Shown one piece after another: positions 6,475-49,952 of a stretch of 64,000 nt of DNA. The notes below the pieces were generated by a model. The model saw only the letters and a list, made by a program, of their open reading frames with translations. It was not told the DNA's origin and did not search any database. Both the position numbers and the translations under genes were made by a program. The stretch's first letter is position 1; every line of letters begins with the position of its first letter. This stretch comes from an uncultured Oscillospiraceae bacterium (GTDB taxonomy: Bacteria; Bacillota; Clostridia; Oscillospirales; Oscillospiraceae): NCBI GenBank assembly GCA_964384255.1, contig CAYLKH010000001.1, positions 10,668 through 74,667 on the forward strand, given 5' to 3'.

Positions 6475-8421
6475 TTATTCAATATCGAGAGTAATAAGCC
6501 CTGTATAGGTGCCTGGGACGGCGTCCACAGCAGCGCCGTCAACGGTCATGGTCAGCTTTTTGCCGCCCTGGCCGACTATCTGACAATCCTGGCCGATGGT
6601 CAGCCCGGTCAGCAGGCTTTTGCCGGTGACTTCCCATATTGCCCCGTTTTCCAGCTTTACTATAACGCCGTTGTTCAGAGGGGCGGAGGGAGTGATGTCT
6701 ACCACGCCCAGATACTGGGGATCGGTGTACCATATGCCGTAGCCTGCAAGGGGCAGGGTCTGGCCGTCGTCGGAATATTTGAATCCGCCATTTCCGTCTT
6801 CCACAGGCAGGGTATATTCCTTGGGCATTTTGCCAAACAGAAGGTCTTCAACAGTTTCGGTCACATATTTTCTGCCGTCCTTATCGGTGCAGACCTTTTT
6901 GCCGTCGCCGTCATAGGCGATGCCATAGGAGAAATCCCTGTGGCGATAATCGGCGGAGGATATGATGCCGGTGAGCTTTGTCCTGTCAAATACCAGAGAA
7001 AGGTTTTGACCGTTGATATATTTGGTGTTATAAAAATCGCCGGTAAGCTCCATGTTTTTGTAGCAGGAGTGGACAGTGCCTTCGGCGTTTTCGTCGGTAA
7101 TGTTGAAATTTTCCACTTTTTTGCGTTCAAAGAAGAATTCGCCGTTGGGCGCCCAGCACTTGTCGTGGGTCCGCACACCCATGCCCGGGTCGTCGCTTTC
7201 CATCAGATGGAGAATGACCGGAGATTTGATGGTGACACCGTCGCACAAAATGGTGGGGCTGTTGAGCCGCTGATCGCTCTTGATAAGGAAGGCAGCTTCC
7301 CCCGCTTCGATAACGGTGCCGGGACGGATGTCAAAGGTACCGGTGGACTGGTGGTGCCACATACCGGCAAAACGTTTTGTTTTGATGACGCAGGGCTTTT
7401 CTTCCACGTTTTCAAGGCCGACTTCGCTGTCCAGCTGAGCCAGAAGCTCGGCCCGTTCTTTCAGGTTTTCCTGACTGCTGGGACCGACGATGGCGAGATT
7501 TTCGTTGCCGCCAACGGAGAAAACGTAGTCCGGTACGTCAAATTCGCAGCCCAGGAAGGTAGAGGTGGTGCCGCCCAGAATGTAGGCGCAGTAGCCGCTG
7601 GCATAGCCTTTGTCGCCGGGGATAGATGCCTTGACGTTTATCATATTATGGACAGCGCCCCTGGTGCCGTCTACCGAAAGGACGCCCCAGCCGTTGCAGG
7701 TCAGGCGGGTATTGTAATAGGTGACGTTGGCCGCTTCAAGAACATTGGTTGCCCGGAGAGTTCCCCGCAGACCAAGGACCCAGGGTACCTCAGACAGATG
7801 GGGGTGCTTTGCGTACCAGTCGGCGTTGTCGGTGCCTTCGCATTCGATGGTGCTGTCTTTAACCAGAACCTTTGACTGACCGGCGGCAGCAACGGCGGTG
7901 GCGATAACGCCTCTGGTCCTGATATCGGTGTTGGAAACAATAACTTCCGCGTCGCCCCCAACGGCTATGGCGCTGCCCCAAAGCTGGAAATCGTCGCCGC
8001 CATTGCCGGTATAATCCATCACGGTTCCGTCCACAGTGATTTTGCCGCCGTCGGCAGAAACGCAATTGAAGCAGTTGCCTTTAACAGTTATCTTGCCGCC
8101 GGAAATGCCGCTGTCGCTGATGGAAGCGCCGGATATGGCGGGCAGGACAGAGGCCGAACGCATCAGACCGTCGCTGCCGAACATGGCGGCACTGCGATAG
8201 GAGTTTTCAAATCCGCACCAGCTGTCCACCGCGTCCGCAACGGTGATGACGATATTGCCTTCATAGCTGCCGGGAACAAAGTCGGCCAAAGCTCCGTTGA
8301 CAGTCATAATGGCGCACTTGCCCTCGGGGGCGGTTATTTCGCCGCCGTCTTCAATGGTCAGGCCACCTAAGGTGGTGGAGCTTTCTACCAGCCAGGTCTC
8401 GCCTTTTTTAATGGTTTTCAT
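6475..8421 (-). CDS. Beta-helix family protein, paralogue P1 (no Gly/Pro cassette), function unknown
   Basis: 648 aa with no signal peptide. Shares blocks with 52833..54947 and 61369..62826: GGDDFQLWGSAIAV, VPWVLGLRGTLRAT, NGWGVLSVDGTRG, LMESDDPGMG, and a C-terminal module NGAIWEVTGKSLLTGLTI...VDGAAVDAVPGTYTGLITL. Confidence 0.8.
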   Translation of the reverse strand: MKTIKKGETWLVESSTTLGGLTIEDGGEITAPEGKCAIMTVNGALADFVPGSYEGNIVITVADAVDSWCGFENSYRSAAMFGSDGLMRSASVLPAISGASISDSGISGGKITVKGNCFNCVSADGGKITVDGTVMDYTGNGGDDFQLWGSAIAVGGDAEVIVSNTDIRTRGVIATAVAAAGQSKVLVKDSTIECEGTDNADWYAKHPHLSEVPWVLGLRGTLRATNVLEAANVTYYNTRLTCNGWGVLSVDGTRGAVHNMINVKASIPGDKGYASGYCAYILGGTTSTFLGCEFDVPDYVFSVGGNENLAIVGPSSQENLKERAELLAQLDSEVGLENVEEKPCVIKTKRFAGMWHHQSTGTFDIRPGTVIEAGEAAFLIKSDQRLNSPTILCDGVTIKSPVILHLMESDDPGMGVRTHDKCWAPNGEFFFERKKVENFNITDENAEGTVHSCYKNMELTGDFYNTKYINGQNLSLVFDRTKLTGIISSADYRHRDFSYGIAYDGDGKKVCTDKDGRKYVTETVEDLLFGKMPKEYTLPVEDGNGGFKYSDDGQTLPLAGYGIWYTDPQYLGVVDITPSAPLNNGVIVKLENGAIWEVTGKSLLTGLTIGQDCQIVGQGGKKLTMTVDGAAVDAVPGTYTGLITLDIE

Positions 8422-8496: not shown

Positions 8497-8764
8497 AGGT
8501 TAGGATTCAGGATTTAGGGGTTAGGGAAAATAGCCGATAGCCAGTGCGTTTGACGCAGCGATGAAGTCACGCAAGGGGGAAAATCGTCACGGCGATTTGC
8601 CCTTGCAGTCAAATAAATCGGGTCAGGATAAGGTTGTCAATTTGTATGTTTTAGAGTATTATGGGGGTCAGGGATGCACGCCGGATAACAGATAACAGAT
8701 AACAGATGAGGTGTGCCTGCGGCACAGATTTGATTTTTTCTCTTCCCTATTCCCTAACCCCTAA
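8497..8764. repeat. TTAGGG-arm inverted-repeat element, copy A
   Basis: Left arm GAGGTTAGGATTCAGGATTTAGGGGTTAGGG (8497-8526), right arm CCCTATTCCCTAACCCCTAA (8745-8764). The core has a diverged CGCAAGGGGGAAAATCGTCACGGCG block (8570-8594), GATAACA x3 (8685-8705) and a GTGCCTGCGGCAC hairpin. Confidence 0.6.
8634..8662 (+). promoter_or_regulatory. Candidate promoter for alaX-L, inside repeat copy A
   Basis: TTGTCA, 17 nt, TATTAT. The resulting ~105-nt 5' UTR contains GGGGTCAGGGA, which can pair with TCCCTAACCCC next to the RBS. Confidence 0.4.
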
Positions 8765-9921: not shown

Positions 9922-10298
9922 GATTTAGGGATTAGGGGCGCTTCCCGCAAGATTTATGCAATACTTGGGTAGTGCGCCGTAGGGGTCGGCGTCCTCGACG
10001 ACCCGCACGTTGCGTGATTGAGTTGTTGTGTCATGCGCACAGCGTCGCGCAACCACCCGTAGGGGACGCAAAAAATTGCTTCGCAATTTTTTGCGTCCCC
10101 TACGGCGCTCCCCGCAAGTTTTCGCAAAAATCTCGCGGGGAGCGCCCCTAATCCCTAGATCCTAAATCCTGACCCCTACTATGAGATTGCCACGTCGGCC
10201 TGTGGCCTCCTCGCAATGACATAAAGGGAACTGCGCTCCTCGCAATGACAGGCGGGGAGCGCCCCTGATTCCTGCCCCCTGAATCCTGAATCCTAACC
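9911..10298. repeat. TTAGGG-arm inverted-repeat element, copy B (composite: one full element plus a second core and right arm)
   Basis: Left arm AGGGGTTAGGATTTAGGGATTAGGGGCGCTTCCCGC (9913-9948) pairs with GCGGGGAGCGCCCCTAATCCCTAGATCCTAAATCCTGACCCCT (10135-10177). Inside are a 23-bp perfect hairpin at 10057..10105 and a second hairpin at 10106..10144. The second core 10183..10249 and right arm 10250..10298 follow. Confidence 0.72.
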
Positions 10299-11691: not shown

Positions 11692-11753
11692 AAAGGGCTG
11701 CCATCGGCAGCCCTTTCAGCGTGTCAAAATAGTCCGTTGGACTATTTTGACAC
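11692..11753. repeat. Hairpin pair: AAAGGGCTGCC/GGCAGCCCTTT stem, then conserved GTGTCAAAATAGTCC hairpin (copy H1)
   Basis: 11692-11716 is an 11-bp stem with a 3-nt loop. 11721-11753 is GTGTCAAAATAGTCC gtt GGACTATTTTGACAC, a 15-bp perfect stem. Lies just after the acpP stop. Confidence 0.7.
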
Positions 11754-11948: not shown

Positions 11949-12428
11949 TCATTTGTGGTAGCGACTTCCCTGATTTATTTTTTCTGCCCGGTACAGCTGC
12001 TCCAGCAGCATGACCCGCGCCAGATGGTGGGGAAAAGTCATGTCCGACATGGACAGCCGCAGGTCGGCCTGACGCTTAAGCTCTTCGTCAAGGCCAAAGG
12101 AGCCGCCGATCAGAAATACAAATCCGGATACGCCGCCGCTTTTCAGGGCGGCGATTTTTTTGGCCAGAGCTTCGGAGGATATCTTCTGACCCTCCACACA
12201 CATGGCCACCATAAAGGCGTTTTTAGGTATTTTTGCCCGAATGGCCGCAGCTTCTTTTGCAAGGGCGGCAGATATTTCGGCGGCAGACGGGTCGTCTGAC
12301 AGACGCTGCTCCGGCAGCTCCACCACTGTTGCCCCGCCAAAGGCGGACATACGCTTAATGTATTCGTCACAGGCTGATTTAAAATGGGCTTCTTTCAGCT
12401 TGCCCACGGCAATGATGCTATATGTCAT
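11949..12428 (-). CDS. rlmH: 23S rRNA (pseudouridine1915-N3)-methyltransferase RlmH
   Basis: MTYSIIAVGKLKE...FLIGGSFGLDEELKRQADLRLSMSDMTFPHHLARVMLLEQLYRA, a SPOUT RlmH signature. Start taken at MTYSI; overlaps the upstream stop by 11 nt. Confidence 0.9.
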   Translation of the reverse strand: MTYSIIAVGKLKEAHFKSACDEYIKRMSAFGGATVVELPEQRLSDDPSAAEISAALAKEAAAIRAKIPKNAFMVAMCVEGQKISSEALAKKIAALKSGGVSGFVFLIGGSFGLDEELKRQADLRLSMSDMTFPHHLARVMLLEQLYRAEKINQGSRYHK

Positions 12429-13695
12429 CTTCGTCCTTTTCCGTCTCCCTGACAACAACGCTCAGCTCGGTGACCCGAAGGTCGTCAGTTTCGGTAACGG
12501 TGATGGTCAGGTTTTCGTAGTCAAAGCTGTCCCCTGCGTTGGGATATCCCCCAAGCATTTCGATCGCCCAGCCGCCGAGGGTGGTATAATCGCCCTCAAA
12601 ATGGTCGGAATCGTGGCCGACCTCGTCGAGAAAGTCGTAAATGCTCATGTCGCCGCTGACCTCATAGCGATTGGGTTCGACCTCTTCAAACTCGGGTTCG
12701 ATATCGTCAGTCTCGTCCCAGATCTCGCCTACCAGCTGTTCAAGAACGTCTTCCATTGTCAGTATGCCCATTGTTCCGCCATATTCGTCGGTAACAACTG
12801 CCATATGCACCCGGCGGCGTTTCAGCTCAGCAAGAACCGCCGGCAGCTTCATGGATTTGTGGATAAAGCAGACCTCCATCAGCTGATCCCGGATGGATAC
12901 GTTGGGGTCGTCTACCAGCTGCTTATAAAAATGGTTAAGGAACAGTATGCCGATAATGTTGTCAACCGTACCTTCATATACCGGGATGCGGGAAAACTGA
13001 GAGGATGATGCGATGTGGAGAATGGTGTCCATATCGTCGTCGATATCGATAGCCACCATGTCGACCCGGTGAGTTATTATCTCCTGGGCAGTGATCTCGG
13101 CAAAGTCGATAGCGGATTGGATAAGGTCGCTTTGCTCCTCGTCGATAACGCCCTCGTCCTCAACGGTTTCGATGATGGAAACCAGCTCTTCTTCGGTGAC
13201 CGAGGGGCCGGTATCGCCATCGCCGGTCCATAGCCGGGACGCAAGGTCGATAAATTTTGAGACGACAAAAACGAAGGGATAGGTCAGCCACATCAGGAAC
13301 CTGAGGGGCAGAGATACTGCAACGGCAAAACTGTCGCAATTGGCGCTGGCCAGTATCTTTGGCAAAATCTCGCCAAAGATAAGGATAAGGACGGTCATAA
13401 CGACGCCGGACAGAGCAGCGCCCCGGGAACCGAACAGCCTGACCATTACCACCGCCGCCACAGATGAGGCGGCCAGGTTGACCAGAGTATTGCCAATAAG
13501 GATGGTGGACAGGGCTTTGCCGTAATTGTCGTAGATATAGCAGGCTGTTTGGAGCCGGATGCCGCCGTCTTCTTCGGCAGATTTTTTGAGCCGACGATGG
13601 TTGACAGAAGCGTAGGCTATCTCAGAGCCTGAAAAAAAGGCAGACAGGGCAATTAATACCACTATGCCTATATAGGGCAGGTACTCACTGTTCAT
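12418..13695 (-). CDS. CNNM/CorB-type membrane protein (DUF21 + CBS pair + CorC_HlyC), so-called hemolysin family
   Basis: N-terminal 4-TM DUF21 (GSEIAYASVN...LIGNTLVNL), a CBS pair, and a C-terminal transporter-associated domain. Confidence 0.85.
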   Translation of the reverse strand: MNSEYLPYIGIVVLIALSAFFSGSEIAYASVNHRRLKKSAEEDGGIRLQTACYIYDNYGKALSTILIGNTLVNLAASSVAAVVMVRLFGSRGAALSGVVMTVLILIFGEILPKILASANCDSFAVAVSLPLRFLMWLTYPFVFVVSKFIDLASRLWTGDGDTGPSVTEEELVSIIETVEDEGVIDEEQSDLIQSAIDFAEITAQEIITHRVDMVAIDIDDDMDTILHIASSSQFSRIPVYEGTVDNIIGILFLNHFYKQLVDDPNVSIRDQLMEVCFIHKSMKLPAVLAELKRRRVHMAVVTDEYGGTMGILTMEDVLEQLVGEIWDETDDIEPEFEEVEPNRYEVSGDMSIYDFLDEVGHDSDHFEGDYTTLGGWAIEMLGGYPNAGDSFDYENLTITVTETDDLRVTELSVVVRETEKDEDDI

Positions 13696-14950
13696 CGGTA
13701 TCCTCCCTTTTTATAATGAGCTTTGTGATGCGCATATTGCGAATCCGGGTGACAGTGATGGTCATATCAGCATATTTGAAGCTGCTGCCGTCGGAAGGAA
13801 CGTAGTCAAAGTTTTCCAGCGCCCAGGCGTTCATGGTGCGGTGACCCAGCTCATCCCGGTCGTAATCGTCGTATCCGATGGCGTCAAAGGCTTCGCGGAC
13901 CTGAAGCTCGCCGCTGACCTCATATCGGTTCTGGCCTATGGGCTTGAAGGTGTCTTTCACCTCGTCGTCCTCGTCCCAGATCTCGCCTACCAGCTCTTCG
14001 AGAATATCCTCGATGGTGACGATGCCCATAACGCCGCCGTAATCGTCGGTGACGATGGCCATGTGGCGTTTTTTGGTTTGCATATTGCGCAAAAGCTCGT
14101 CGATAAGCATACTTTTATGTACAAACAAAGGCTCGTCGATCAGGGATTTCAGGTCGACACTGCCGCCCTGGTCCATATAAGCCTTGAGGTATTTGCGTAT
14201 GCCCAGTATGCCGATGATGTTGTCGACAGTATCTTCATAAACAGGGATCCGGGAATGGCGGCTGTTTTTGATAAGGTCGACTATCTCCTCGCTGGAAAGC
14301 TGGCAGTCGATGGCTACCAGGTCGACCCGGGAGGTAAGAATGTCGGCGACGGTGATATCGTCGAAATCCAGGGCGGAGCGGATAAGACCGCTGCGCTGTT
14401 GATCCATGGTGCCTTCCTCGGCTATCTCGTCGATAATGTCGTAAAGCTCATCCTCAGTCACGGTGGGTTCAGCTCCGGAGCGGAACAGCTTTGCCAGAAG
14501 CCCGGACACCGAAGAAAAGATAAAGGTCACCGGGGTCAGCAGACGCATAAGGAAGAACAGGGACCCCGACGTTGCCAGAGAAAAGCTCTCGGCTTTGGAC
14601 TTGGCATAGCTTTTGGGGAGCATTTCGCTGAACAGGAACACTACCACCGAAAGGATGATGGTGGAAAGGGTAACTGCCCAGTCGCCCCAGAGACGGACCA
14701 CAATGACGGTGGCCAGGGTGCTGGCTCCGATATGCATAATGTTGTTGCCTATGAGAAGGGTGGTCAGAGCCTTGTCAAAATGGTTAAGAATGTAGGTGAC
14801 TCGCTTGGCACGCCGGTCGCCGGAATCGGCCATGGTTTTGATGCGGATTTTGTTAGACGACGCCAAAGCGATCTCGGTTGCAGCAAAGTATCCGCCGCCG
14901 ACGATCAGCAGCAGAAGAATAAAAAGCAACAACCAACTGTCGCTGTCCAC
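13685..14950 (-). CDS. CNNM/CorB-type membrane protein, tandem paralogue
   Basis: Same architecture as 12418..13695 (ATEIALASSN...LIGNNIMHI, CBS pair, CorC_HlyC). GTG start; overlaps the downstream paralogue by 11 nt. Confidence 0.85.
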   Translation of the reverse strand: MDSDSWLLLFILLLLIVGGGYFAATEIALASSNKIRIKTMADSGDRRAKRVTYILNHFDKALTTLLIGNNIMHIGASTLATVIVVRLWGDWAVTLSTIILSVVVFLFSEMLPKSYAKSKAESFSLATSGSLFFLMRLLTPVTFIFSSVSGLLAKLFRSGAEPTVTEDELYDIIDEIAEEGTMDQQRSGLIRSALDFDDITVADILTSRVDLVAIDCQLSSEEIVDLIKNSRHSRIPVYEDTVDNIIGILGIRKYLKAYMDQGGSVDLKSLIDEPLFVHKSMLIDELLRNMQTKKRHMAIVTDDYGGVMGIVTIEDILEELVGEIWDEDDEVKDTFKPIGQNRYEVSGELQVREAFDAIGYDDYDRDELGHRTMNAWALENFDYVPSDGSSFKYADMTITVTRIRNMRITKLIIKREDTDEQ

Positions 14951-15180: not shown

Positions 15181-15217
15181 CAAATAAACCAAAGCGGAGC
15201 TTTGATAAAAGCTCCGC
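15181..15217 (-). terminator. Intrinsic terminator ending the riboswitch-led operon
   Basis: GCGGAGCTTT gata AAAGCTCCGC stem, followed on the minus strand by TTTGGTTTATTTG. Confidence 0.6.
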
Positions 15218-15226
15218 CTGGGGGTC

Positions 15227-15778
15227 TTATTCGTTCAGCCATCGGGCGATGGCCATAACGTCGGCAATAGCCTGGCTGTCCTGCTGAGCAGGGACGGTGT
15301 CAGTGTTGGGGGAACAGGCCATGTGTTCACGGAAGCCCTGAGCATTGACCATGCGGAAAAAGGCGCTTAAATGGTGCCGCGCGTTTTCGTGATTGCCCTT
15401 GCTGCCGGCGGTCAGTATGGCTGCGGATTTTTTAGGCCGCAGCTGCAACGGCTGATTTAGAAAATATTTTGCCGCGTGCCAGGGCTGCAACCGGCTCATA
15501 AGGCTCAGTACCGACCCGGGCAGAGTGCCATAATACACCGGCGACGCAATGACAATATTGTCAAAATCGTCGTCATAAATGACTTGCATCCCGTCCTCTA
15601 CCACGCATTTTGCGGTTTCCCAGCAGCCACGGCAGTCAACACAGGGAGCGATGCCGGAGCGGAAGGCAGAGACTTCAATTACCTCGCCCTCCAGATGCTC
15701 ACGAAGGACGCTGATAAGGTAAGCGGAATTGCCGTTCGGCCGGGGAGAGCCGTTGATTATCAATGTCTTTTTGCTCAT
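15227..15778 (-). CDS. Flavodoxin-fold iron-sulfur flavoprotein (Isf-like, NADPH-dependent FMN reductase family)
   Basis: MSKKTLIINGSPRPNGNS (FMN-binding loop) and CVDCRGCWETAKC, the compact Cx2Cx2Cx5C cluster motif described for Isf. ATGA overlap with the upstream gene. Confidence 0.75.
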   Translation of the reverse strand: MSKKTLIINGSPRPNGNSAYLISVLREHLEGEVIEVSAFRSGIAPCVDCRGCWETAKCVVEDGMQVIYDDDFDNIVIASPVYYGTLPGSVLSLMSRLQPWHAAKYFLNQPLQLRPKKSAAILTAGSKGNHENARHHLSAFFRMVNAQGFREHMACSPNTDTVPAQQDSQAIADVMAIARWLNE

Positions 15779-16311
15779 TTTTCTTCTCCAGTTAACTGAC
15801 TGCGTACAAAATCCAGCACCTGAGGATACAGTTCGTCGCGGTTTTCTTCGGTGATATAAAAGCACTTTGCCTTTGGATGGCTGCGCACCGCCTGCAAAAA
15901 CGGAGTGTCCCTGGTTTTTACGGCGGCGATGACCGGTATATCACCGTCCAGCAGCTCAAGCACAGCAGAGCAGAAATCTTTTGCTTTGGACTCCATAAAT
16001 CCCAGCTCGTCCAGCAGGATGATACCGCCTTCCGGCACAGGCTGACGGAGCTTTGGGGCAAAGCGGTCGAACACCTGGGCGGACGCATCAAATCGGTGGT
16101 TTTTGCAATAACCCACCAGATTTTCTTCCGAGCGGCTCCGCTGCTGCCATGCGCTGTAGATATACACGGGACTGCCCAAGGCTTCATCGGCCAGAGCGTC
16201 CTCTTTCTTCGTTTCAAAACCGTAAACCGGCCGGCCGCAGGCTTTAAGCACCCTGTTTATAAGGGTGCTTTTGCCTACGCCCCGTTCACCAATAATAAGC
16301 GTATGCATCAT
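15775..16311 (-). CDS. P-loop NTPase, THEP1/DUF265-like
   Basis: MMHTLIIGERGVGKSTL Walker A, ILLDELG Walker B-like. 178 aa; 4-nt overlaps on both sides. Confidence 0.6.
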   Translation of the reverse strand: MMHTLIIGERGVGKSTLINRVLKACGRPVYGFETKKEDALADEALGSPVYIYSAWQQRSRSEENLVGYCKNHRFDASAQVFDRFAPKLRQPVPEGGIILLDELGFMESKAKDFCSAVLELLDGDIPVIAAVKTRDTPFLQAVRSHPKAKCFYITEENRDELYPQVLDFVRSQLTGEEK

Positions 16312-17444
16312 TTGAAAAAGGCGTTTGCGGTCAGGGTGGCATACTGCTCGTCGGTCAGGGTAACGCCATAGAACAGCTCGTAGTATTCGGTGACTTCTTC
16401 CTGAAGGTCATAGTCGCAGTATTCGGGATAGAGGATGCTGGGCAGCCACAGCAGCGCCAGATAGCGCTGGCAGGCGGGAGGAGCTACGGTCCAGTTGTGG
16501 GGCGAAGCGGGGGATTCCACGTACTTGCCGTTAACGATGGCGCTGATCTGGCTCCACACAGGGTCTTCGGTGGCGGTTTCATATACGCTGCCGTCGCCAA
16601 AGACGACGAATTCCGGATCCCACAGAGCTATCTGCTCCATATTGACAGTGTTGCCCGTGCCTTTACCGCTGGCGTTTTCGATAACTGCCAGATTGTTGAA
16701 CACCAGATTTATGACCTCGGCCTGAGACTGGCTTTCGGCAATAACGTTCAGACCGTCGTCACCCAGAGCGTAGATACCGTTGACCTTGTTGTCGCCTACC
16801 TGGTCCATAATGTCAAGAGCGCGCTGATAAACATCTTCGCACCATGAGGCCATTTCTTCGGCCTTTTCTTCACGGCCCAGCAGCTGACCCAGCTTGCGCA
16901 AGGCTTCGCCGTAATTGTCAAGACCTGCTTCGATGAAGACGCAGGTGATGCCGGTCAGCTCTTCGGTGGTGGCCAGTTCCTCTTCATAACCGGTCTTGGT
17001 ATAACCCATGTCGATGACCAGCTGAGCGTTGGTGGAGGCAAGGGCTTCTACATCAAGGTCGGCAGCACCCAGAACGGAGCCGAAATAGGTCAGCTGAGAC
17101 AGACGGTCATAGTCGGGGATGTATTCGGCCATATCGTCATACAGCTTGCCGCCCAGACCTGCTATCAGGTCGGGAGCAACACCCAGCAGCATGACCTGAG
17201 CCAGCTGGCCGGAGGGAACGACAGCGGTCAGGGGTTCGGTTATCTGAATCTCATGCCCCAGATCGTCTACAAAGGTGTATGGCTGGAAGCCTTCTTCAAC
17301 AGGTTCGGCAGCTTCTTCCACCGGGGTGGACACAGCAGGTTCGGACGAAGCTTCTGCTTCGGTGGTTTCGGCGGTGTTGGCACAGGCGGCAAGACTGAAA
17401 AGCATTGCGAAAGTCAGCAGCAGCGCCAAAAGTCTGGTTTTCAT
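16308..17444 (-). CDS. ABC transporter substrate-binding lipoprotein (cluster A / FecB-BtuF-MolA type)
   Basis: MKTRLLALLLTFAMLFSLAACAN lipobox, an acidic linker, then a periplasmic-binding-protein type 2 body. GAGGAGG RBS. Confidence 0.82.
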   Translation of the reverse strand: MKTRLLALLLTFAMLFSLAACANTAETTEAEASSEPAVSTPVEEAAEPVEEGFQPYTFVDDLGHEIQITEPLTAVVPSGQLAQVMLLGVAPDLIAGLGGKLYDDMAEYIPDYDRLSQLTYFGSVLGAADLDVEALASTNAQLVIDMGYTKTGYEEELATTEELTGITCVFIEAGLDNYGEALRKLGQLLGREEKAEEMASWCEDVYQRALDIMDQVGDNKVNGIYALGDDGLNVIAESQSQAEVINLVFNNLAVIENASGKGTGNTVNMEQIALWDPEFVVFGDGSVYETATEDPVWSQISAIVNGKYVESPASPHNWTVAPPACQRYLALLWLPSILYPEYCDYDLQEEVTEYYELFYGVTLTDEQYATLTANAFFK

Positions 17445-17502
17445 GGTTGGTTCCTCCTCGTTTAAATAAAATATGTTAAGCTTGTTGCTTACGTATTAGC
17501 AG

Positions 17503-17772
17503 TGGGTCAGGGGATATGGAACAGAGAACAGATGGTGAGTGCCTTCGGCACGGATTAAATCATATAAGTCGTTGTGTAGAGCGTTTTGCCATTGCGAGGA
17601 GCGCAGTACCCGTTTTGTCATTGCGAGGAGGCCAAAGGCCGACGCGGCAATCTCACCCCTTGCGAATTCGAGAAGTATCGATAAAACGCAACAGGCTTGG
17701 GTCAACAGTGTAAAATTTAAATATGTGCCGCAGGCACTAATCATCTGTTATCTGACCCCTGACCCCTGAATC
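17503..17772. repeat. TTAGGG-arm inverted-repeat element, copy D, inserted between two genes of one operon
   Basis: Left arm GGGTCAGGGGATATGGAACAGAGAACAGATGGTGAGTGCCTTCGGCAC, right arm GTGCCGCAGGCACTAATCATCTGTTATCTGACCCCTGACCCCTGAATC. Core 17588..17654 is 61/67 identical to the reverse complement of 10183..10249. Confidence 0.72.
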
Positions 17773-18533
17773 GGTACGCATACACGTACTCTGTCGTCGC
17801 TGAGACTGTGTATCTCAACATCGATGCCATAGAGCCTTGACATAAGCTCCGGCTGCATGACCTGCTGGGGAGTTCCCCAGGCCAGGACCTGACCGTCATG
17901 CATGGCAAGGATCCTGTCGGAATACATAAATGCCTGCTCCGGGTCGTGGGTGGTCTGCACAACGGCATAGCCGTCGGCCACAAGCCCCTTGACGGTCTGC
18001 ATGACCCGGATGCGGTTTCCAAAGTCCAGACTGGCAGAAGGCTCGTCCATCACCAGTATTTTTGCCTGCTGAGCAATGGCCCGGGCCAGCAGACAAAGCT
18101 GCTTTTCGCCCCCGGAGCAGAAGCCGTAGGGATGCTCTGCCAGATGGGAGATGTTCATCTTTGCCAATGCGCTGTGGGCAATCTCGATCTGCGCTTTGCC
18201 CGGAGTTGCCAGAGGGCCAAGCTGAGACGCCGTTCCCATAAGCACCATGTCCAGAACGGAATAATTGAAGGTGGGGTTATGGTACTGGGGGATATAGGCG
18301 ATGGAGCGGGCCAGCTCCTGAGCTGACATTTCGGCGACGTTCCGGCCGTCTATCTCGATGGTCCCGGACCTGGGCTTAAGCAGATTCAGAATGCAGCGAA
18401 ACAGGGTGCTTTTGCCAACTCCGTTGGGACCCAGTATGGACAGGAATTCCCCCCGGTGGGCCTCAAAGCTGATGTCCTTTAAAATCTGGCGTTTGCCAAA
18501 ATAAAAATCCAGATGCTGGACCTTTAAACTCAC
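17748..18533 (-). CDS. ABC transporter ATP-binding protein (FepC/BtuD/MolC type)
   Basis: GPNGVGKSTL Walker A, CSGGEKQL signature, ILVMDEP Walker B. The last 7 codons plus stop (IQGSGVR*) lie in the right arm of repeat D. Confidence 0.9.
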   Translation of the reverse strand: MSLKVQHLDFYFGKRQILKDISFEAHRGEFLSILGPNGVGKSTLFRCILNLLKPRSGTIEIDGRNVAEMSAQELARSIAYIPQYHNPTFNYSVLDMVLMGTASQLGPLATPGKAQIEIAHSALAKMNISHLAEHPYGFCSGGEKQLCLLARAIAQQAKILVMDEPSASLDFGNRIRVMQTVKGLVADGYAVVQTTHDPEQAFMYSDRILAMHDGQVLAWGTPQQVMQPELMSRLYGIDVEIHSLSDDRVRVCVPIQGSGVR

Positions 18534-19555
18534 AGCTTGTCACCCTCCTTCATAATGAGATAGATGAAAAACGGAGCACCCACAAAGGACGTGAGTATGC
18601 CGATAGGCAGGTCGGTGGCCCAGACGTTGCGGCAGATATTGTCCACCAGCAGCATGAATATTGAGCCGAAAAGCATGGTGGAGGGGATAAGCTTTTTATA
18701 GTCGTTGCCTACCACCCGGCGTGCCATGTGGGGGATGACCAGACCTACCCAGCCGATAATACCGCTGACAGCCACACTGGCGGCGGTTATAAGGGCTGAG
18801 CATATTATTATGATGACGCGCAGACGCCTGGCGTTGATGCCAAGGGTGCGGGCCTCGTCGTCGCCAAGAGACAGGATGTTTATCCTCCAGCGCAGGGCAA
18901 AGATGGGGATAAGGCCTATAGCCATGGGTATGGCCGCAAAGCCGATATCCCGCATATTGGCCCCGTTAAAGCTGCCCATGAGCCAGTAGGTTATGGCAGG
19001 CAGCTGGTCCTCAGTGTCGGCAATGAGCTTTAAAAAAGAGGTGCAGGAGGACACCAGACTGCTTATCATAACTCCGGCCAGTATCAGCCCAACTACCCGG
19101 TTGCCTCTGGCGCGGTTGCCTACGAAAATGACCAGAGCGACCGTACCCAGACTGAATACAAAGGCCATGATGCTGACGACATAATTGATGTAGCCCAGTA
19201 TAATAGCCAGAGCCGCGCCCAGAGCTGCGCCGGAGCTGGCTCCCAGAATATCGGGAGCGGCCATGGGGTTTTGGAACACGCCCTGATAGCAGGCGCCGGC
19301 GGTGGACAGACAGCAGCCTACCAGACAGGCCAGCAGTATCCGGGGTACCCGGTGCTTTAAAAACAGGGCCTCCTGAGTCTGGGACCAGAAAGGTTCAATG
19401 TCGGTAAAGGGCAGCTTTGACAGGGCAATCCCCCACAGCTCTTTCAGGCTGATGGGATATCTGCCCAAAGTGGTGGACAGGATGCACGCCGCCACCAGCC
19501 CGCCGAACAGGATAAGCATCACCGCCCAGAAGGGGAGTTTGTTTGTCTTTTTCAT
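18530..19555 (-). CDS. ABC transporter permease, FecCD/BtuC family (type II importer)
   Basis: Start taken at MKKTNKLPFWAVMLILFGG. About 10 TM helices, with the FecCD-typical GASSGAALGAALAII and LSLGDDEARTLGIN blocks. Confidence 0.9.
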   Translation of the reverse strand: MKKTNKLPFWAVMLILFGGLVAACILSTTLGRYPISLKELWGIALSKLPFTDIEPFWSQTQEALFLKHRVPRILLACLVGCCLSTAGACYQGVFQNPMAAPDILGASSGAALGAALAIILGYINYVVSIMAFVFSLGTVALVIFVGNRARGNRVVGLILAGVMISSLVSSCTSFLKLIADTEDQLPAITYWLMGSFNGANMRDIGFAAIPMAIGLIPIFALRWRINILSLGDDEARTLGINARRLRVIIIICSALITAASVAVSGIIGWVGLVIPHMARRVVGNDYKKLIPSTMLFGSIFMLLVDNICRNVWATDLPIGILTSFVGAPFFIYLIMKEGDKL

Positions 19556-19559
19556 TGGT

Positions 19560-20102
19560 TTACCTTTTATAATAGTCTCCACCGGCGCAGCCCTTGCACA
19601 GGGTCTTACTGTCAACGACAACGTGACGGTTATCGGAAACCTCTTCGCCACAGACTTCGCAGGTGACGATGGCGACCGGAGGCCCGGGCATATCCCCGGG
19701 AGCAAGGTCGACGGTGACTTCGGTGGCTTCCAGCCAGCCTTCTTCGGGGAGATTTTCGTAAAAATCGGTCAGATCTTCGCCGTTTTCGGGATGGATATGG
19801 TTTGCCCGGACCACCCGGACGGCTTTGCCGGTATCGAGATTTACGAAGGTGGCAGCGGTTTTGCCAAAGTCGTGGAAATAGAAGGTGCGTTTCCCCGGCG
19901 AGGTGCCGGTTGTTATCATAATGGAGTCTGCGGGGCAGCGGTTACACTCCACAAAAACCATCAGCTTCTTCCGGTCGCGCTCGTTGTCCAGCCCAAGCAG
20001 ACGCAGACCCATGTGGGCCATGCGCACTCCCAGACACTGGCCGGAGCAGAGGTGACCGTGAAAGGCCACGGCCCGGTCAAGATCTTCTCTAAATGTCCTC
20101 AT
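19560..20102 (-). CDS. FmdE-family protein with C-terminal zinc ribbon
   Basis: FHGHLCSGQCLGVRM (FmdE core motif) and CEVCGEEV...CKGC. ATG 20102 is 6 nt after GGAGGG; the ORF track start at 20108 is an alternative. Confidence 0.72.
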   Translation of the reverse strand: MRTFREDLDRAVAFHGHLCSGQCLGVRMAHMGLRLLGLDNERDRKKLMVFVECNRCPADSIMITTGTSPGKRTFYFHDFGKTAATFVNLDTGKAVRVVRANHIHPENGEDLTDFYENLPEEGWLEATEVTVDLAPGDMPGPPVAIVTCEVCGEEVSDNRHVVVDSKTLCKGCAGGDYYKR

Positions 20103-20805
20103 TTTCATCCCTCCGAATTACAAATATTCCAAATTCCTTCAGGTTTGGCAGATAGTACGGCCATTTTTCGTGGCCGGTATTTTCCATCCTGTCTGCCAGA
20201 TATTTTTCCAACACCTCGTCGCTCATGGGACGGGAATATGCCCGGGCAAAGGCTCTCGCTTCGTCCATATCTGCCAGCGGCTGACCGTATTCCAGGGAAA
20301 CACTTTCAAGGGTATATCTGACCCCAAGCCCATCCAGATATTCGCTGACGCTGGCAATATCAGAGCATTTTACCACCTGGTGACCTTCAGGGCCAAATTT
20401 GCCTTTTCGGGTCTTGTGGACCAGGATGATAAACTGCTGCTTCGCCAGACGAAAGTACTTTTCATAAAACTGGCTGCCGCCGAAGAAAAGGGCGGTCACA
20501 GTGTCCCATGAGCTTTCGAGAGTGGAGCAGTCGGCACATACGGTGTCCATGTTGCTGATGCCCCGGAGCAATGCACCGCTTTGAACAGCGGCAATAGCCT
20601 CGGGAGAAACGTCCACACAGGTGATACGGCTGCAATGGTCGGCCATTTCAAAATCCAACAGGCCTGCGCCGCAGCCTATGTCGCACAGGCTGCTGCCGAA
20701 GGGGATATATTTTTTCAGCATTTCGGCCAGTTTCCTGTTGTAGCCCGTATATTCCGATGCGTTTTCAAACCATTTGATGGACTGATCGTTCCATTTAATA
20801 TACAC
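20089..20805 (-). CDS. Class I SAM-dependent methyltransferase
   Basis: LCDIGCGAGLLDFEMA (motif I) and VDVSPEAI (motif II). GTG start with AGGAG upstream. Confidence 0.75.
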   Translation of the reverse strand: MYIKWNDQSIKWFENASEYTGYNRKLAEMLKKYIPFGSSLCDIGCGAGLLDFEMADHCSRITCVDVSPEAIAAVQSGALLRGISNMDTVCADCSTLESSWDTVTALFFGGSQFYEKYFRLAKQQFIILVHKTRKGKFGPEGHQVVKCSDIASVSEYLDGLGVRYTLESVSLEYGQPLADMDEARAFARAYSRPMSDEVLEKYLADRMENTGHEKWPYYLPNLKEFGIFVIRRDENEDI

Positions 20806-20809
20806 AGTT

Positions 20810-21919
20810 TCAAGCTCCTGTCAGGTCAACAGATAAGTATTTTAAAATAAATTCCATTATGGCGTCGATATCCTCCAGACCGAAGTGGGGGATATCCCCA
20901 TCTACCTCCATATCAGTCACCACGGCGACGAACCGGCTTATTTCGGCGGTAAAGCCCTTTCCCGTAGCGGAGCGGGCGATGCCTATCTGGGGCAGGTCGC
21001 CGTTTTTGTAGCCCTCGACCAGAATCAAATCAACGTCGTGGCACATGGCCATCTGCCGGTCAAGGGTCAGGGGACGGGATTCAATATAGGCGATTTTTTC
21101 CTTTGAGCCTATCATGGAGATGTCGGCTCCGGCGTGGGTAAAGCGCCATGAGTCCTTGCCCTGGTAGTCGATCTCAAATTTGTGGCCGTCGTGCTTGATG
21201 ACCGCCAGACGCAGACCCTTTTGCTTCATGGCGACGATCAGCTTTTCTATAAGGGTCGTTTTCCCGGTGCCGGAATAGGCGGCAAAGGCGATAGCGGGTA
21301 TGGCGGTTTTGTCCTCAGCTTTTTGCACAGGCAGGGGATGGTATTCGGCATCCCATTTCCGGCCGGAGTGTCCTTGCCTGAGCTTGCCCCGTTCGGGGTC
21401 GTTATAGTAGATGCGGTTGTTTTCAATAAGCTGTTCCAGGGTGACCGGGCGATAATCGTTGATATCCACCCCCGCGTTCAGCACCCGGGGCAGCTGCTGC
21501 AATATGCGGAAGGTTTCTTTCCTGGTGTTGTGGAGATGGCCGTGGATCATGCAGCCCCCCTGAATGTACACCAGTGGATAGTGACACAGAGTAATGTGGC
21601 GGTCGCCGTCGTCGATTTCCAGAAAGTCGGTCACCGTCTCAAAATAGTCCAACAGCTCCTGCTGGTTGGGGATGCAGGTATCGTGATTGCCCCGGATAAG
21701 GTGCTTGTGGCCCCGCAGGCGGCTGAGCTGCTGAGCCGGAAAAGGGGTGCGGTAGCTCCCTATGTCGCCGATGAGGTAAACAGTGTCGTCATCAGAAACG
21801 ACCTCGTTCCAGTTATTAATTAAAGCCTCGTCCATCTCCTCCACCGAGGCGAAGGGACGGGTGGTGGACTCGATAATGTGTTCATAACCAAAATGCTGGT
21901 CAGCAGTATAATAAATCAT
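20810..21919 (-). CDS. Fusion protein: calcineurin-like metallophosphoesterase (N) + MobB-like molybdopterin-guanine dinucleotide biosynthesis GTPase (C)
   Basis: N-terminal YYTADQHFGY...YLIGDIG...RGNHD...GHLH phosphoesterase motifs. C-terminal AYSGTGKTTLIEKLIVAMKQKGLRLAVIKHDGHKFEIDYQGKDSWRFTHAGA is a canonical MobB signature. Confidence 0.8.
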   Translation of the reverse strand: MIYYTADQHFGYEHIIESTTRPFASVEEMDEALINNWNEVVSDDDTVYLIGDIGSYRTPFPAQQLSRLRGHKHLIRGNHDTCIPNQQELLDYFETVTDFLEIDDGDRHITLCHYPLVYIQGGCMIHGHLHNTRKETFRILQQLPRVLNAGVDINDYRPVTLEQLIENNRIYYNDPERGKLRQGHSGRKWDAEYHPLPVQKAEDKTAIPAIAFAAYSGTGKTTLIEKLIVAMKQKGLRLAVIKHDGHKFEIDYQGKDSWRFTHAGADISMIGSKEKIAYIESRPLTLDRQMAMCHDVDLILVEGYKNGDLPQIGIARSATGKGFTAEISRFVAVVTDMEVDGDIPHFGLEDIDAIMEFILKYLSVDLTGA

Positions 21920-21929
21920 ATTCCTCCAA

Positions 21930-21969
21930 ATAAAAACAAAAAAGGCTGCCTTGAAAACAAGACAGCCTT
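21930..21969 (-). terminator. Leader terminator (attenuator) between the riboswitch-like element and the first gene
   Basis: Minus-strand AAGGCUGUCUUG uuuu CAAGGCAGCCUU (12-bp stem) followed by UUUUUUGUUUUU, then GGAGG and ATG 21919. A weaker hairpin plus U-run lies just upstream (about 21975..22015). Confidence 0.65.
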
Positions 21970-22044
21970 AAGCATACCAAAACCAGCCTCGCCAAAACAA
22001 GGCGAAGCAAAAAACGGTCCTGTCTCCTTCTCAAATACGGAAAG

Positions 22045-22173
22045 CCATGTCGTTTCCAACATAACTCAGTGAGGGCGAAATGCATCCCCTCAGGCCGCTG
22101 GTCATAGCTCAGGTAACCCCTGATTTAATCATCGGTCACTTAGGCCTTAGACTCCACGGCTCGGAAACATATG
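22045..22173 (-). promoter_or_regulatory. Riboswitch-like structured leader; class unresolved, best guess Moco/Tuco RNA motif
   Basis: Minus-strand RNA: GUUUCC-GAGCC-GUGG...(long imperfect helix)...CCAGCGGC-CUGAGGGGAUGCAUUUCGCCCUCACUGAG...GGAAAC. The outer GUUUCC/GGAAAC helix, CCGAGCC junction, GGCCUGA and CACU elements match my recollection of RF01055. No B12 box. Confidence 0.45.
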
Positions 22174-22185
22174 TAATTATCAAAA

Positions 22186-22214
22186 ATTGTAACACCAGAT
22201 TTGGAGAATGTCAA
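22186..22214 (-). promoter_or_regulatory. Near-consensus sigma-A promoter for the riboswitch-led operon
   Basis: On the minus strand: TTGACA (22214-22209), 17 nt, TACAAT (22191-22186), preceded by TGt (extended -10). Confidence 0.6.
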
Positions 22215-25081: not shown

Positions 25082-25837
25082 TTACTCCTTGACAGCCTGA
25101 AGACCTTCGGTAACGTCGGTCACGTGCATGGTGATACTTATGGTGTCGCCGTCAACGCTGCCCACAAAGCGGAACAGGGAACCCTGGGCGGTAACGGTAT
25201 GCAGTTCAAAGGAACAGCCGTCCTTTTTACCGAAGGAAAAAACATTTACGTCGGTTTTGTCGCCAACCTTCATGGGCGGCATGGGAGGCATACCACCGGG
25301 ACCACCGGAACCACCGGGACCGCCAGGACCGCCAGGACCACCGGGACCACCAGGGCCACCAGGGCCACCGGGACCACCAGGACCGCCGGACATTTCGCCC
25401 ATCATCTGAGCCATCTGAGCCATAGACTCCTCGGTCACCAGACCGAACATTTCGCCGCTGAGCTCATCGCCGTTTTCCTCAATGACCAGATGGTTTTCTT
25501 TAACTCCGCCGGGAGAGTAGACACCCACGAGATATTCGCCCTGAACCTGACCGGAAACGCCGGATATCCTTTTTCCGGGTTGAAGCACAATAGTCTCGTT
25601 GGTGGTAAGGGTCAGGTTGGACAGGCTGCCGGAAAAGGTATATTCTGTCCGGCCGACCATAGCCTTGAAGGAAAGCTCGCCGCCGGAGGAGGAGCCGTCG
25701 AATATCTCCAGCTGAGCGCTGGGGTCATAGGGGTTTGAAACAAAGCCGGTGACAACGCCGGAGGTTTCCTCAAGCGTCAGCACGCAGTCCCGTTTTCCAC
25801 CGGGCAGTGACAGAGAAACAGTGTATTTGTCTGACAT
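25082..25837 (-). CDS. Small beta-rich protein split by a (GGP)n / Met-rich cassette, function unknown
   Basis: 251 aa with no signal peptide. ...[49 protein letters not shown]... is inserted between two beta-strand-rich segments. AAGGAA RBS. Confidence 0.7.
   Translation of the reverse strand: [251 protein letters not shown]
25271..25393. repeat. Tandem 9-nt (GGP-coding) repeat tract
   Basis: (GGN CCN CCN)-type units on the + strand, about 8 consecutive GGP codon triplets plus Met-rich flanks. Confidence 0.85.
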
Positions 25838-34124: not shown

Positions 34125-34452
34125 TGTCAGGGGTTGCGGATCAGTAATTAGTGCGGGCAGTGCCTGCGGCATGACCTAATCAGGAGACGGGGCAGGAAAT
34201 CGGTTTTGCCCAATAACTGACCCCTGATAACTAACTCATATAACCTACCCATTATATCATATACACATGACAGTTTGCTAGACCAAAATGCGGTCAGGCA
34301 GCGGTTTTAATATTAAATAACGCTGCCGATTTCCAGATGATGGAAACCGGCAGCGTTTCAGCGTGTCAAAATGATCCGCTGGACTATTTTGACAGCCTCG
34401 ATATGATATGACTATTGGTTATCTGACAACTAACTACTGATAACTAATCCCT
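34125..34452. repeat. Composite repeat region, copy G: arm/core/arm element, variable hairpin, GTGTCAAAAT hairpin (H2), extra right arm
   Basis: Arms GTCAGGGGTTGCGGATCAGTAATTAG (34125-) and CAATAACTGACCCCTGATAACTAAC (34210-). Hairpin AACGCTGCCG...CGGCAGCGTT (34319-34357). H2 GTGTCAAAATGATCC gct GGACTATTTTGACAG (34363-34395). Arm GGTTATCTGACAACTAACTACTGATAACTAATCCCT (34417-34452) overlaps the galE stop. Confidence 0.55.
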
Positions 34453-39762: not shown

Positions 39763-39870
39763 GCACAACTTGTATACAAAGGCCCGATGGCCTTTGTATA
39801 CAAGTTGTGCGGAACGAACTGAAGTTCGTTCGAGCGTGTCAAAATAGTCTGTTGGACTATTTTGACACGC
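39763..39870. repeat. Three consecutive hairpins, the last being the conserved GTGTCAAAATAGTC hairpin (H3)
   Basis: 22-bp perfect stem GCACAACTTGTATACAAAGGCC cgat GGCCTTTGTATACAAGTTGTGC (39763-39810). GAACGAAC tgaa GTTCGTTC (39812-39831). GCGTGTCAAAATAGTCT gtt GGACTATTTTGACACGC (39834-39870). Confidence 0.7.
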
Positions 39871-45860: not shown

Positions 45861-45894
45861 AAAATCGCCGCGACAAATCGTCGCGGCGATTTTT
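45861..45894 (+). terminator. Intrinsic terminator after the MATE gene
   Basis: AAAATCGCCGCGAC aaatc GTCGCGGCGATTTT followed by T. Confidence 0.7.
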
Positions 45895-45898
45895 ATCC

Positions 45899-45933
45899 CG
45901 TGTCAAAATAGTCCATCGGACTATTTTGACACG
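45899..45933. repeat. Conserved GTGTCAAAATAGTCC hairpin, copy H4
   Basis: CGTGTCAAAATAGTCC atc GGACTATTTTGACACG, a 16-bp perfect stem directly after the terminator hairpin. Confidence 0.75.
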
Positions 45934-49890: not shown

Positions 49891-49952
49891 ATTATTGACC
49901 TCCAATTCATTTCATTTTCTTCAAATCGCAGTTTACACAGATCGATGGAACA

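Follow-up and report, generated by a model that had tools for sequence, protein, structure and literature searches.

A molybdenum cofactor riboswitch upstream of a MolBC-type importer operon in an uncultured Oscillospiraceae bacterium

What does an importer operon bring into the cell when it stands behind a structured leader RNA, and what does that leader sense? The question is raised by eight genes on the minus strand of a stretch of DNA from an uncultured Oscillospiraceae bacterium (assembly GCA_964384255.1, contig CAYLKH010000001.1, positions 10,668 to 74,667). The whole 64,000-nt stretch is called the window below, and coordinates are counted from its first nucleotide. A preliminary description of the locus, made from the sequence alone, had proposed a possible molybdenum cofactor (Moco) or tungsten cofactor (Tuco) riboswitch in front of an ATP-binding cassette (ABC) importer of the BtuCD or MolBC kind, with a new leader class as the alternative. 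The analysis presented here makes it probable that the operon encodes a MolBC-A-type molybdenum or tungsten importer with a set of helper proteins, placed under a P3-containing Moco riboswitch and repressed by the cofactor.

The leader RNA and its proposed switch

The identity of the leader was settled by comparison with Rfam. The covariance model RF01055, described there as "Molybdenum/Tungsten riboswitch aptamer, Moco RNA motif", matches positions 22178..22008 of the minus strand with 64.9 bits (gathering score 36, E 2.4e-13), and the alignment is full-length, covering model positions 1-135 of 135. It is the sole Rfam family to reach its gathering score across the whole window. Neither the gathering-score scan of the window nor a permissive E-value scan of the leader gave a cobalamin or thiamine pyrophosphate (TPP) signal, and in the permissive scan of the leader alone everything beyond RF01055 was at chance level. 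One such match, resembling an L20 leader (22.9 bits against 58.7), corresponds to the terminator only. Since both scans yielded RF01055 alone, and over its full length, another riboswitch class and a new leader class are excluded, and the initial guess of a Moco or Tuco leader was correct. In other words, the leader is an ordinary member of RF01055, novel neither in kind nor in class, and its family membership points to the molybdenum cofactor as the ligand.

Transcription of the leader is expected to start from a sigma-70-type promoter (22186..22214, minus strand) with the arrangement TTGACA-17-TACAAT and an upstream TG (TG-n-TACAAT). It agrees with the consensus at 11 of 12 positions, as its earlier label of near-consensus implied, and the end of its -10 box lies 8 nt from the first aptamer position. 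The aptamer itself occupies 22008..22178 of the minus strand. It was first taken for a structured RNA of about 130 nt; the structure was confirmed by the family match and by a whole-leader folding energy of z = -6.2 relative to shuffles, but the length was not, as the aptamer has 171 nt because of a 31-nt distal insert at the tip of P2. Alignment to the RF01055 consensus places P1 between GUUUCC (22168-22163) and GGAGAC (22027-22022), and P2 between 22160-22150 and 22103-22094. The outer helix had been drawn as GUUUCC/GGAAAC; the GGAAAC segment in fact belongs to the GAAA tetraloop region of P4. The CCGAGCC junction and the long internal helix, which is P2, were recognized correctly.

P3 is formed by UGAGGG and CCCUCA (22092-22087 with 22075-22070, minus strand) and is well formed, which assigns the aptamer to the Moco subtype. 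P4 pairs 22067-22057 with 22052-22042 on the same strand and is capped by a GAAA tetraloop (22056-22053). Inspection of the alignment located the two halves of a tetraloop receptor in P2, CUAAG (22150-22146) and UAUGA (22106-22102). The GNRA tetraloop and its matching receptor are thus both present, as membership in RF01055 leads one to expect; the correlation between tetraloop and receptor in Moco RNAs has been described before (PMC2408646).

Conservation was followed in related loci, designated here by L numbers. A profile of the binding protein was scanned against one genome per GTDB species, which gave 80 loci, and aptamers were then sought with a covariance model built from three aptamers and subsequently rebuilt from 42. 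With both models, 39 of the 80 species-level loci have an aptamer directly upstream of the operon in the same orientation, and the second model found no further aptamers in the 41 riboswitch-less ones. Alignment of orthologous leaders, which had been proposed as a check, was clearly favourable. Across 42 homologous aptamers, 93% of base-pair cells hold standard pairs, and compensation is seen in 31 of the 37 pairs, in an alignment that was fitted to the model, so that pairing counts lean towards the structure. None of the 500 shuffles reached the observed values, and sliding the 3' partners by 1-3 columns left 35-52% of cells paired.

Between the aptamer and the first gene lie two hairpins, both of which had been called terminator-like. 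This holds for the second of them. The first, GCUUCGCC...GGCGAGGC (21986..22008, minus strand, 8 bp), is GC-rich and lengthens to about 16 bp in the minimum-energy fold; with only a poor U tract behind it, it probably does not terminate transcription and serves instead as a spacer that the antiterminator encloses. The second is an intrinsic terminator (21930..21969, minus strand) with a 12-bp stem, AAGGCUGUCUUG / CAAGGCAGCCUU (21969..21942), a UUUU loop and a U-run; the sequence 3' of the stem reads UUUUUUGUUUUU. A terminator-like hairpin follows the aptamer in 37 of the 39 orthologous leaders, and the arm GCUGUCUUGUUUUCAAG is also found in L001, L006, L010, L011 and L042. The terminator is followed, as first described, by the Shine–Dalgarno sequence GGAGG (21927-21923) and the ATG of gene 1 (21919-21917), which together span 21917..21927 of the minus strand.

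A partner for the terminator was obtained by constrained folding. The candidate antiterminator strand UUGAGAAGGAGACAG (22020..22034, minus strand), which spans the aptamer's conserved 3' core as well as the 3' strand of P1, can pair from 22034-22020 with 21965-21951 (CUGUCUUGUUUUCAA, the 5' arm and loop of the terminator) over 14 bp with one G.G mismatch, in a duplex that encloses the first hairpin. The complementarity exceeds that of shuffled controls in the window (z = -2.2) and, more broadly, in 30 leaders, where the mean z is -1.77, with 13 values below -2 and 28 of the 30 negative. Covariation between the two strands is seen in L031 and L034, where GGAAGCAGC faces GCUGUUUCC.

Because terminators are conserved and antiterminator complementarity is enriched, the leader is most likely an OFF switch acting by premature transcription termination, and the attenuation architecture first suspected at this locus gains support. 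When the cofactor is plentiful, it would bind the aptamer and lock P1; the 12-bp terminator would then form, and RNA polymerase would halt before gene 1. With little cofactor, the antiterminator strand made of the aptamer's 3' core and the P1 3' strand would instead pair with the terminator arm and loop, allowing read-through into the eight genes.

The closest precedent for the RNA is the Moco RNA in the moaA leader of E. coli (PMC2408646), for which the riboswitch evidence is genetic. It belongs to the same aptamer family, with helices P1-P5 including P3, the CCGAGCC junction and the GAAA tetraloop with its receptor; it too stands 5' of Moco-related genes, and OFF logic is expected in both. 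The two differ in the expression platform, as the E. coli leader is reported to act by masking the ribosome-binding site, whereas the window has a separate intrinsic terminator with a candidate antiterminator. They differ also in the 31-nt P2 insert and in the regulated genes, which in the window are a type II importer and its accessories rather than moaABCDE or modABC.

A further pairing appears in the minimum-energy fold of the leader, in which 22172-22160 (CAUAUGUUUCCGA, the 5' strand of P1 with its flank) pairs over 12 bp with 21929-21917 (UUGGAGGAAUAUG, the ribosome-binding site and start codon). This may simply mirror the GGAG-like 3' strand of P1 in the family; the additional CAUAU/AUAUG match is not accounted for in this way.

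The operon and its transporter

The genes behind the leader were assigned with Pfam and NCBIfam models, which agree with all eight of the families first proposed. Gene 1 (20810..21919, minus strand, like all that follow) encodes a metallophosphoesterase (residues 1 to about 195) fused to MobB (residues 210-362); the MobB half scores 132.7 bits in Pfam and 127.7 bits with NCBIfam TIGR00176 (cut-off 76). In L006, L010 and L017 the two halves are separate genes, the phosphoesterase first and MobB last in the operon, and gene 1 is therefore a fusion of two usually separate operon members. Gene 2 (20089..20805, Pfam) is a class I S-adenosylmethionine (SAM)-dependent methyltransferase. Gene 3 (19560..20108) combines an FmdE domain (100 bits; PDB 2gvi) with a C-terminal zinc ribbon of the DksA/TraR C4 type.

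The importer follows. Gene 4 (18530..19558, Pfam 307 bits) is a MolB-like, FecCD-family permease of a type II ABC importer, and gene 5 (17748..18533, Pfam ABC_tran) is a MolC-like ATPase. Gene 6 (16308..17444) encodes a substrate-binding lipoprotein of the Peripla_BP_2 family, class III or cluster A, with the lipobox cysteine at position 21, as identified by Pfam, sequence profile and predicted fold. The operon continues with gene 7 (15775..16311, Pfam), a THEP1-like P-loop NTPase of the NTPase_1 family, and closes with gene 8 (15227..15778), an FMN_red-family flavoprotein whose start was taken at MSKKTL, overlapping the stop codon of gene 7. A strong intrinsic terminator (15192..15219, minus strand) marks the operon end.

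The genes had been described as tightly packed with 4-nt overlaps, which is mostly true; the junction between the ATPase and the binding-protein gene departs from it, with a spacer of 303 nt (17445..17747, minus strand). The spacer is noncoding, with stops in all frames, and holds copies of dispersed repeats that also occur between other genes of the window; an in-frame stop or selenocysteine codon upstream of the binding-protein gene was considered and ruled out on these features. Two of the repeats have distant counterparts, a 69-nt segment (17587-17655 against 10182-10250, 91% complementary) and a 48-nt segment (17707-17754 against 8696-8743, 83% complementary). There are also two tandem copies of the 18-mer CCTCGCAATGRCAAAACG, with 10209-10226 listed among the same repeats, and a promoter-like TTGACC. 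In the closest relative, L001, the same junction measures only about 66 nt, and the insert looks like a small mobile or repetitive extragenic palindromic (REP)-like element within the operon. Because no terminator-like site was detected within the spacer, co-transcription of all eight genes is likely, though not certain.

What kind of importer is this? Among solved structures, the permease finds MolB of Haemophilus influenzae (HI1471) first, with 241 bits and an end-to-end alignment, ahead of HmuU (175), FhuB (169) and BtuC (132 bits); the ATPase finds MolC (HI1470) first, with 134 bits. The analogy to MolBC-A drawn in the preliminary description is in this respect well founded, as MolB and MolC are the best solved relatives of the two proteins. 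The NCBIfam equivalog models for BtuC, Fec, Fhu and haem systems all score far below cut-off (for instance, BtuC 236 against 461), and no operon protein matched ModA, TupA or WtpA models in Pfam or NCBIfam. These comparisons assign the transporter, at the level of protein families, to the MolBC-type type II importers and not to the type I importers ModABC, TupABC or WtpABC.

The binding protein is more distant from its counterpart. Its AlphaFold2 model (mean predicted local distance difference test score, pLDDT, 83.8) was compared with known structures using Foldseek, which placed 4pag, 4ovk, 4hn9 and 2etv near the top and MolA (3psa) at rank 6 (E 3e-17, 17% identity). The first four, including 4pag from Sulfurospirillum and 4ovk from Veillonella, are uncharacterised structural-genomics proteins. 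Both by Foldseek and by sequence profiles, MolA ranks ahead of the siderophore binders CeuE, YiuA and FatB.

MolBC-A (HI1470/HI1471/HI1472) is a low-affinity molybdate transporter whose binding protein, MolA, binds molybdate and tungstate (PMC4031551). It shares with the window system the permease and ATPase kinship, the class III binding-protein fold and a molybdenum context. The differences lie in gene order, which is A-B-C in Haemophilus and B-C-A in the window, in the remote relationship of the binding protein to MolA, and in the accessory genes of the window, which the Pasteurellaceae molABC loci lack. In a Haemophilus-like contig (L081, 937-6768), molABC directly follows a second mod-like type I transporter and a ModD-like (QRPTase-family) gene, and only 68 nt, without a Moco aptamer, precede molA.

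A second comparison is with ModABC, TupABC and WtpABC, many of which stand under Moco or Tuco riboswitches. The regulatory logic, a cofactor-sensing aptamer that represses metal uptake, and the presumed purpose are the same. The proteins, in contrast, have an unrelated fold, combining a BPD_transp_1 permease with a class II binding protein where the window has FecCD and Peripla_BP_2.

Related loci and genomic surroundings

The association of the aptamer with this transporter extends well beyond the window. The closest group of relatives is found in Flavonifractor (87% identity), so that the window itself derives from a Flavonifractor-like member of the Oscillospiraceae; the other loci belong to further Oscillospiraceae, Lachnospiraceae, Faecousia, Treponema and other spirochaetes, Desulfosporosinus, Acetobacterium and Clostridium; nearly all of the 80 come from gut, rumen or termite-gut organisms. 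In the binding-protein tree, the clade of the window comprises 45 loci, of which 33 carry an aptamer, 6 are ended by the contig and 6 have none, L002 and L012 among them. An aptamer is thus present in 33 of the 39 loci with sufficient upstream DNA. Rfam itself confirmed the aptamers of both relatives checked, and the cobalamin riboswitch model RF00174 matched neither the window nor any of the seven relatives scanned.

Permease, ATPase and binding protein are kept across all loci. NTPase_1 is the commonest accessory gene (39 of 80), and the flavoprotein, methyltransferase, phosphoesterase and MobB recur among the relatives. The genes downstream of the window aptamer, with the MobB fusion, FmdE and a MolBC-like importer, are of the kind expected at an RF01055 location, and the neighbours of relatives include XdhC, a MobA-like protein, MoeA fusions and DUF364. 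In a more distant transporter clade (L049, L060, L062, L063, L076, L078, L079 and L080), the binding-protein gene is followed 3' by a trio of a CobW/HypB-like GTPase, a soluble ABC-type ATPase and a DUF364/DUF4213 protein, for example at 10976-13581 of L080; methyltransferase and NTPase_1 genes often come next. DUF364 has been associated with molybdate and tungstate transporters (PMC2954201; bioRxiv 10.1101/2024.03.05.583561).

Two loci bear on the metal context. In a Lachnospiraceae metagenome-assembled genome (MAG; L019, 124-7836), two Moco aptamers stand in series on one strand, the first ahead of the operon with the type II importer and NTPase_1. The other (4543-4682) comes directly after that operon and precedes a classical modABC, whose ModA is genuine (TIGR01256, 114 bits, cut-off 62.5). 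In a Sporobacter termitidis MAG (L054, 59-6984), the order is binding protein, Moco aptamer, NifH/CfbC-like protein, nitrogenase-component-1-like protein, an 807-residue fusion of a nitrogenase-like protein to full-length MoeA, FecCD permease and ATPase. From this gene context, a nitrogenase-like reductase may be tied to molybdenum insertion. In L039 and L056, too, a member of the nitrogenase-like::MoeA family (cluster c85) precedes the binding-protein gene.

The preliminary description had called a leader of this type on such an operon not a standard arrangement. This was overstated, as the supplement of Regulski et al. (2008, PMC2408646) lists it for Desulfitobacterium hafniense, in one context as RNA, Crp, FepD, FepC, COG2014 and TroA_e, and in another as RNA, MoeA, NifH, two nitrogenase-like genes, MoeA, FecCD, FepC and TroA_e. 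A Moco aptamer in front of a FecCD-type importer had thus been recorded before; it is a catalogued but uncharacterised arrangement, tabulated there and not discussed in the main text. Among the papers searched in full text, none linked the Moco riboswitch with MolBC, FecCD or FmdE. Judged by tabulated gene context, the D. hafniense loci have the same order of a Moco aptamer ahead of a FecCD/FepC/class III importer. Their partners recur among the present loci, with DUF364 in L049, L060, L062, L063, L076 and L078-L080, NifH and nitrogenase-like::MoeA in L054, and Crp-type regulators in L002 and L012. The accessory set of the window differs from theirs, consisting of phosphoesterase-MobB, methyltransferase, FmdE, NTPase_1 and FMN_red.

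Some loci depart from the common plan. L002 (5841-6599, minus strand) and L012 (6629-7381, minus strand) have neither an aptamer nor a phosphoesterase-MobB gene, and a homologous, divergent Crp/Fnr-type regulator stands beside the methyltransferase gene instead. Here, as with the Crp protein of D. hafniense, the riboswitch may be replaced by, or combined with, a protein regulator. L076 carries two Moco aptamers facing apart, at 5879-6032 (minus strand) and 6864-7024 (plus strand); no convincing open reading frame (ORF) was found within about 1 kb downstream of the minus-strand one.

Within the window, the operon stands alone in its subject. It is flanked upstream by a CYTH-domain gene and EPSP synthase and downstream by two CNNM/CorC paralogues, all unrelated to molybdenum, and no molybdenum-related gene was found among 20 neighbouring or large ORFs elsewhere in the window. 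The downstream pair are tandem CNNM/CBS/CorC_HlyC genes of a putative Mg/Co efflux type (12418-13695 and 13685-14950, minus strand), and a perfect-consensus promoter, TTGACA-16-TATAAT, lies at 15147-15120. A 39-nt palindromic element, GTGTCAAAATAGTCCnnnGGACTATTTTGACAC, occurs in four intergenic copies that are 85-100% identical (11714-11752, 34356-34394, 39829-39867 and 45893-45931); candidates for its nature are a REP-like repeat, a bidirectional terminator and an operator site. Runs of a 9-nt periodic repeat of the GGACCNCCG type (25297-25397, 49502-49873 and 53234-53289) lie inside ORFs without a Pfam match, among them 48205-49905 and 52833-54947; their sequence suggests Gly/Pro-rich repetitive proteins.

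What the importer may carry

Taken together with the aptamer, the homology to MolB and MolC argues for a system that supplies the cell with the metal of the sensed cofactor. The permease, the ATPase and the class III binding lipoprotein would bring in molybdenum, or tungsten in some relatives, most likely as the oxyanion. The cytoplasmic helpers, namely the phosphoesterase-MobB fusion, the SAM methyltransferase, the FmdE-zinc ribbon protein, the THEP1-like NTPase and the flavoprotein, which resembles flavin mononucleotide (FMN) reductases, would presumably handle the metal or the cofactor on its way to molybdopterin (MPT) and the enzymes. Substrate and helper roles are both inferred from homology and gene context.

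Several observations weigh against this picture. The phosphoesterase, the methyltransferase and the flavoprotein are not obviously needed by an oxyanion pump. In sequence, the binding protein matches MolA over roughly its 100 C-terminal residues only (E 7.7e-6; profile 3.4e-11), and the structures closest to the binding protein, 4pag and 4ovk, carry no known ligand. An internal promoter could lie in the 303-nt spacer, in which case the riboswitch may control genes 6-8 only in part. Even when P1 is left out, the terminator state of the leader is favoured over the antiterminator state by about 10 kcal/mol, and the decision of the switch would therefore have to be kinetic. Kinetic decisions are common among transcriptional riboswitches. 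Finally, no Moco aptamer is present upstream of molABC in three Pasteurellaceae loci (L081-L083), even at E values up to 0.01, so that the riboswitch link is not general to MolBC systems. A Moco aptamer was also considered as the "unknown factor" behind the repression of molB by molybdate (PMC4031551) and was rejected, as none was found in these three loci.

The alternative that survives best keeps the riboswitch and the attenuation but changes the cargo. The importer would carry molybdenum or tungsten in a form other than the oxyanion, such as thiomolybdate, thiotungstate or a chelate, or else a pterin for salvage, be it Moco, molybdopterin, cyclic pyranopterin monophosphate (cPMP) or a dinucleotide form. 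The phosphoesterase, methyltransferase, flavoprotein, FmdE protein and NTPases would then convert this cargo into usable metal or cofactor. Such a role would explain why accessory enzymes without an obvious part in oxyanion uptake are conserved, and it suits a type II importer, since these usually carry large and scarce ligands (B12, haem, siderophores); BtuC, HmuU and FhuB are indeed the next-best NCBIfam and PDB matches. The habitat is compatible as well, as nearly all loci come from gut, rumen or termite-gut anaerobes, and sulfide rapidly turns molybdate into thiomolybdates (PMC10390477). A pterin- or flavin-like compound has been put forward as the target of DUF364, the partner in relatives (PMC2954201). 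The classical modABC that adjoins the system in L019 under its own aptamer speaks against simple redundancy, but this co-occurrence has a mundane precedent in H. influenzae, which keeps ModABC beside MolBC-A as high- and low-affinity systems. The nearest characterised transporter, MolBC-A, carries the oxyanion. A non-oxyanion cargo is rather unlikely. The same holds for its wider form, the tentative idea that the module is a dedicated non-oxyanion acquisition pathway for molybdenum or tungsten in strict gut anaerobes, with the conserved partners as its processing and insertion machinery.

Less probable still is a reading in which the aptamer senses Tuco and the operon serves tungsten acquisition. 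FmdE and several of the partners are linked to both tungsten and molybdenum systems, MolA binds tungstate as well as molybdate, and tungstoenzymes are reported to be common in gut Clostridia (PMC11980592). Moreover, the orthologous operons include ten with P3-less aptamers, the "Tuco type" of Regulski et al. (PMC2408646). The window aptamer, however, has a well-formed P3, and in the 2008 survey P3-containing RNAs occurred exclusively with genes for MPT or Moco synthesis and for Moco-using proteins (PMC2408646), although the P3 rule is a correlation only. Among the 39 orthologous leaders P3 is present in 29 and absent in 10, the latter falling into three separate subclades, so that both kinds of aptamer alternate within a single orthologous transporter clade. 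This alternation counts towards the main reading, as it fits a carrier that may accept both molybdenum and tungsten, like MolA. A search for tungsten-enzyme neighbours of the P3-less leaders gave nothing informative, most of the ORFs tested having no Pfam match.

It is very improbable that the operon encodes an ordinary iron-chelate, haem or corrinoid importer, with an aptamer that is incidental or governs the MobB fusion of gene 1 alone: relatives are named "iron ABC transporter" in their sources, NCBIfam lists BtuC, FecC/D and FhuB for the permease and haem and corrinoid models for the ATPase, and the 303-nt spacer might carry a promoter of its own for the binding-protein gene, but all of these models fall below cut-off, MolB and MolC stand clearly first among solved structures, Rfam shows neither a cobalamin riboswitch nor any element besides the Moco aptamer, and the aptamer accompanies the transporter in 39 species, many of whose operons have no MobB ahead of the permease (the permease comes first in L007-L009, L014, L025, L026, L028, L029 and L031-L034).

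A MolBC-type importer of molybdenum or tungsten under a Moco riboswitch thus remains the favoured account, and its value lies in what the riboswitch marks. The aptamer itself would be labelled by any Rfam-based annotation pipeline; linked to the transporter, it independently labels the function of a MolBC-type type II importer across 39 anaerobic species from gut, rumen and termite gut. The breadth of this linkage, the homology to MolB and MolC and the fixed accessory set are the main gains of the analysis, and together they make a testable case that "iron ABC transporters" of this kind are molybdenum or tungsten acquisition systems of gut anaerobes. Additionally, the alternation of P3-containing and P3-less aptamers on one orthologous transporter provides a natural test set for the idea that P3 separates Moco from Tuco sensing.

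The linkage also ties little-understood proteins to the handling of molybdenum and tungsten, among them NTPase_1/THEP1, FmdE, DUF364, the small phosphoesterase and the nitrogenase-like::MoeA fusions. If the non-oxyanion pathway were true, several families long listed as unknown would receive their first functions. Its machinery would consist of the THEP1-like NTPase, the phosphoesterase, MobB, the SAM methyltransferase, FmdE and the Isf-like flavoprotein, to which relatives would add DUF364, the CobW-like GTPase and the NifH/NifDK-like::MoeA proteins. For the importers as a family, many of the "iron ABC transporter" annotations in databases are probably wrong, and the molybdenum and tungsten supply of gut Clostridia and treponemes may rely on this system and not only on ModABC or TupABC.

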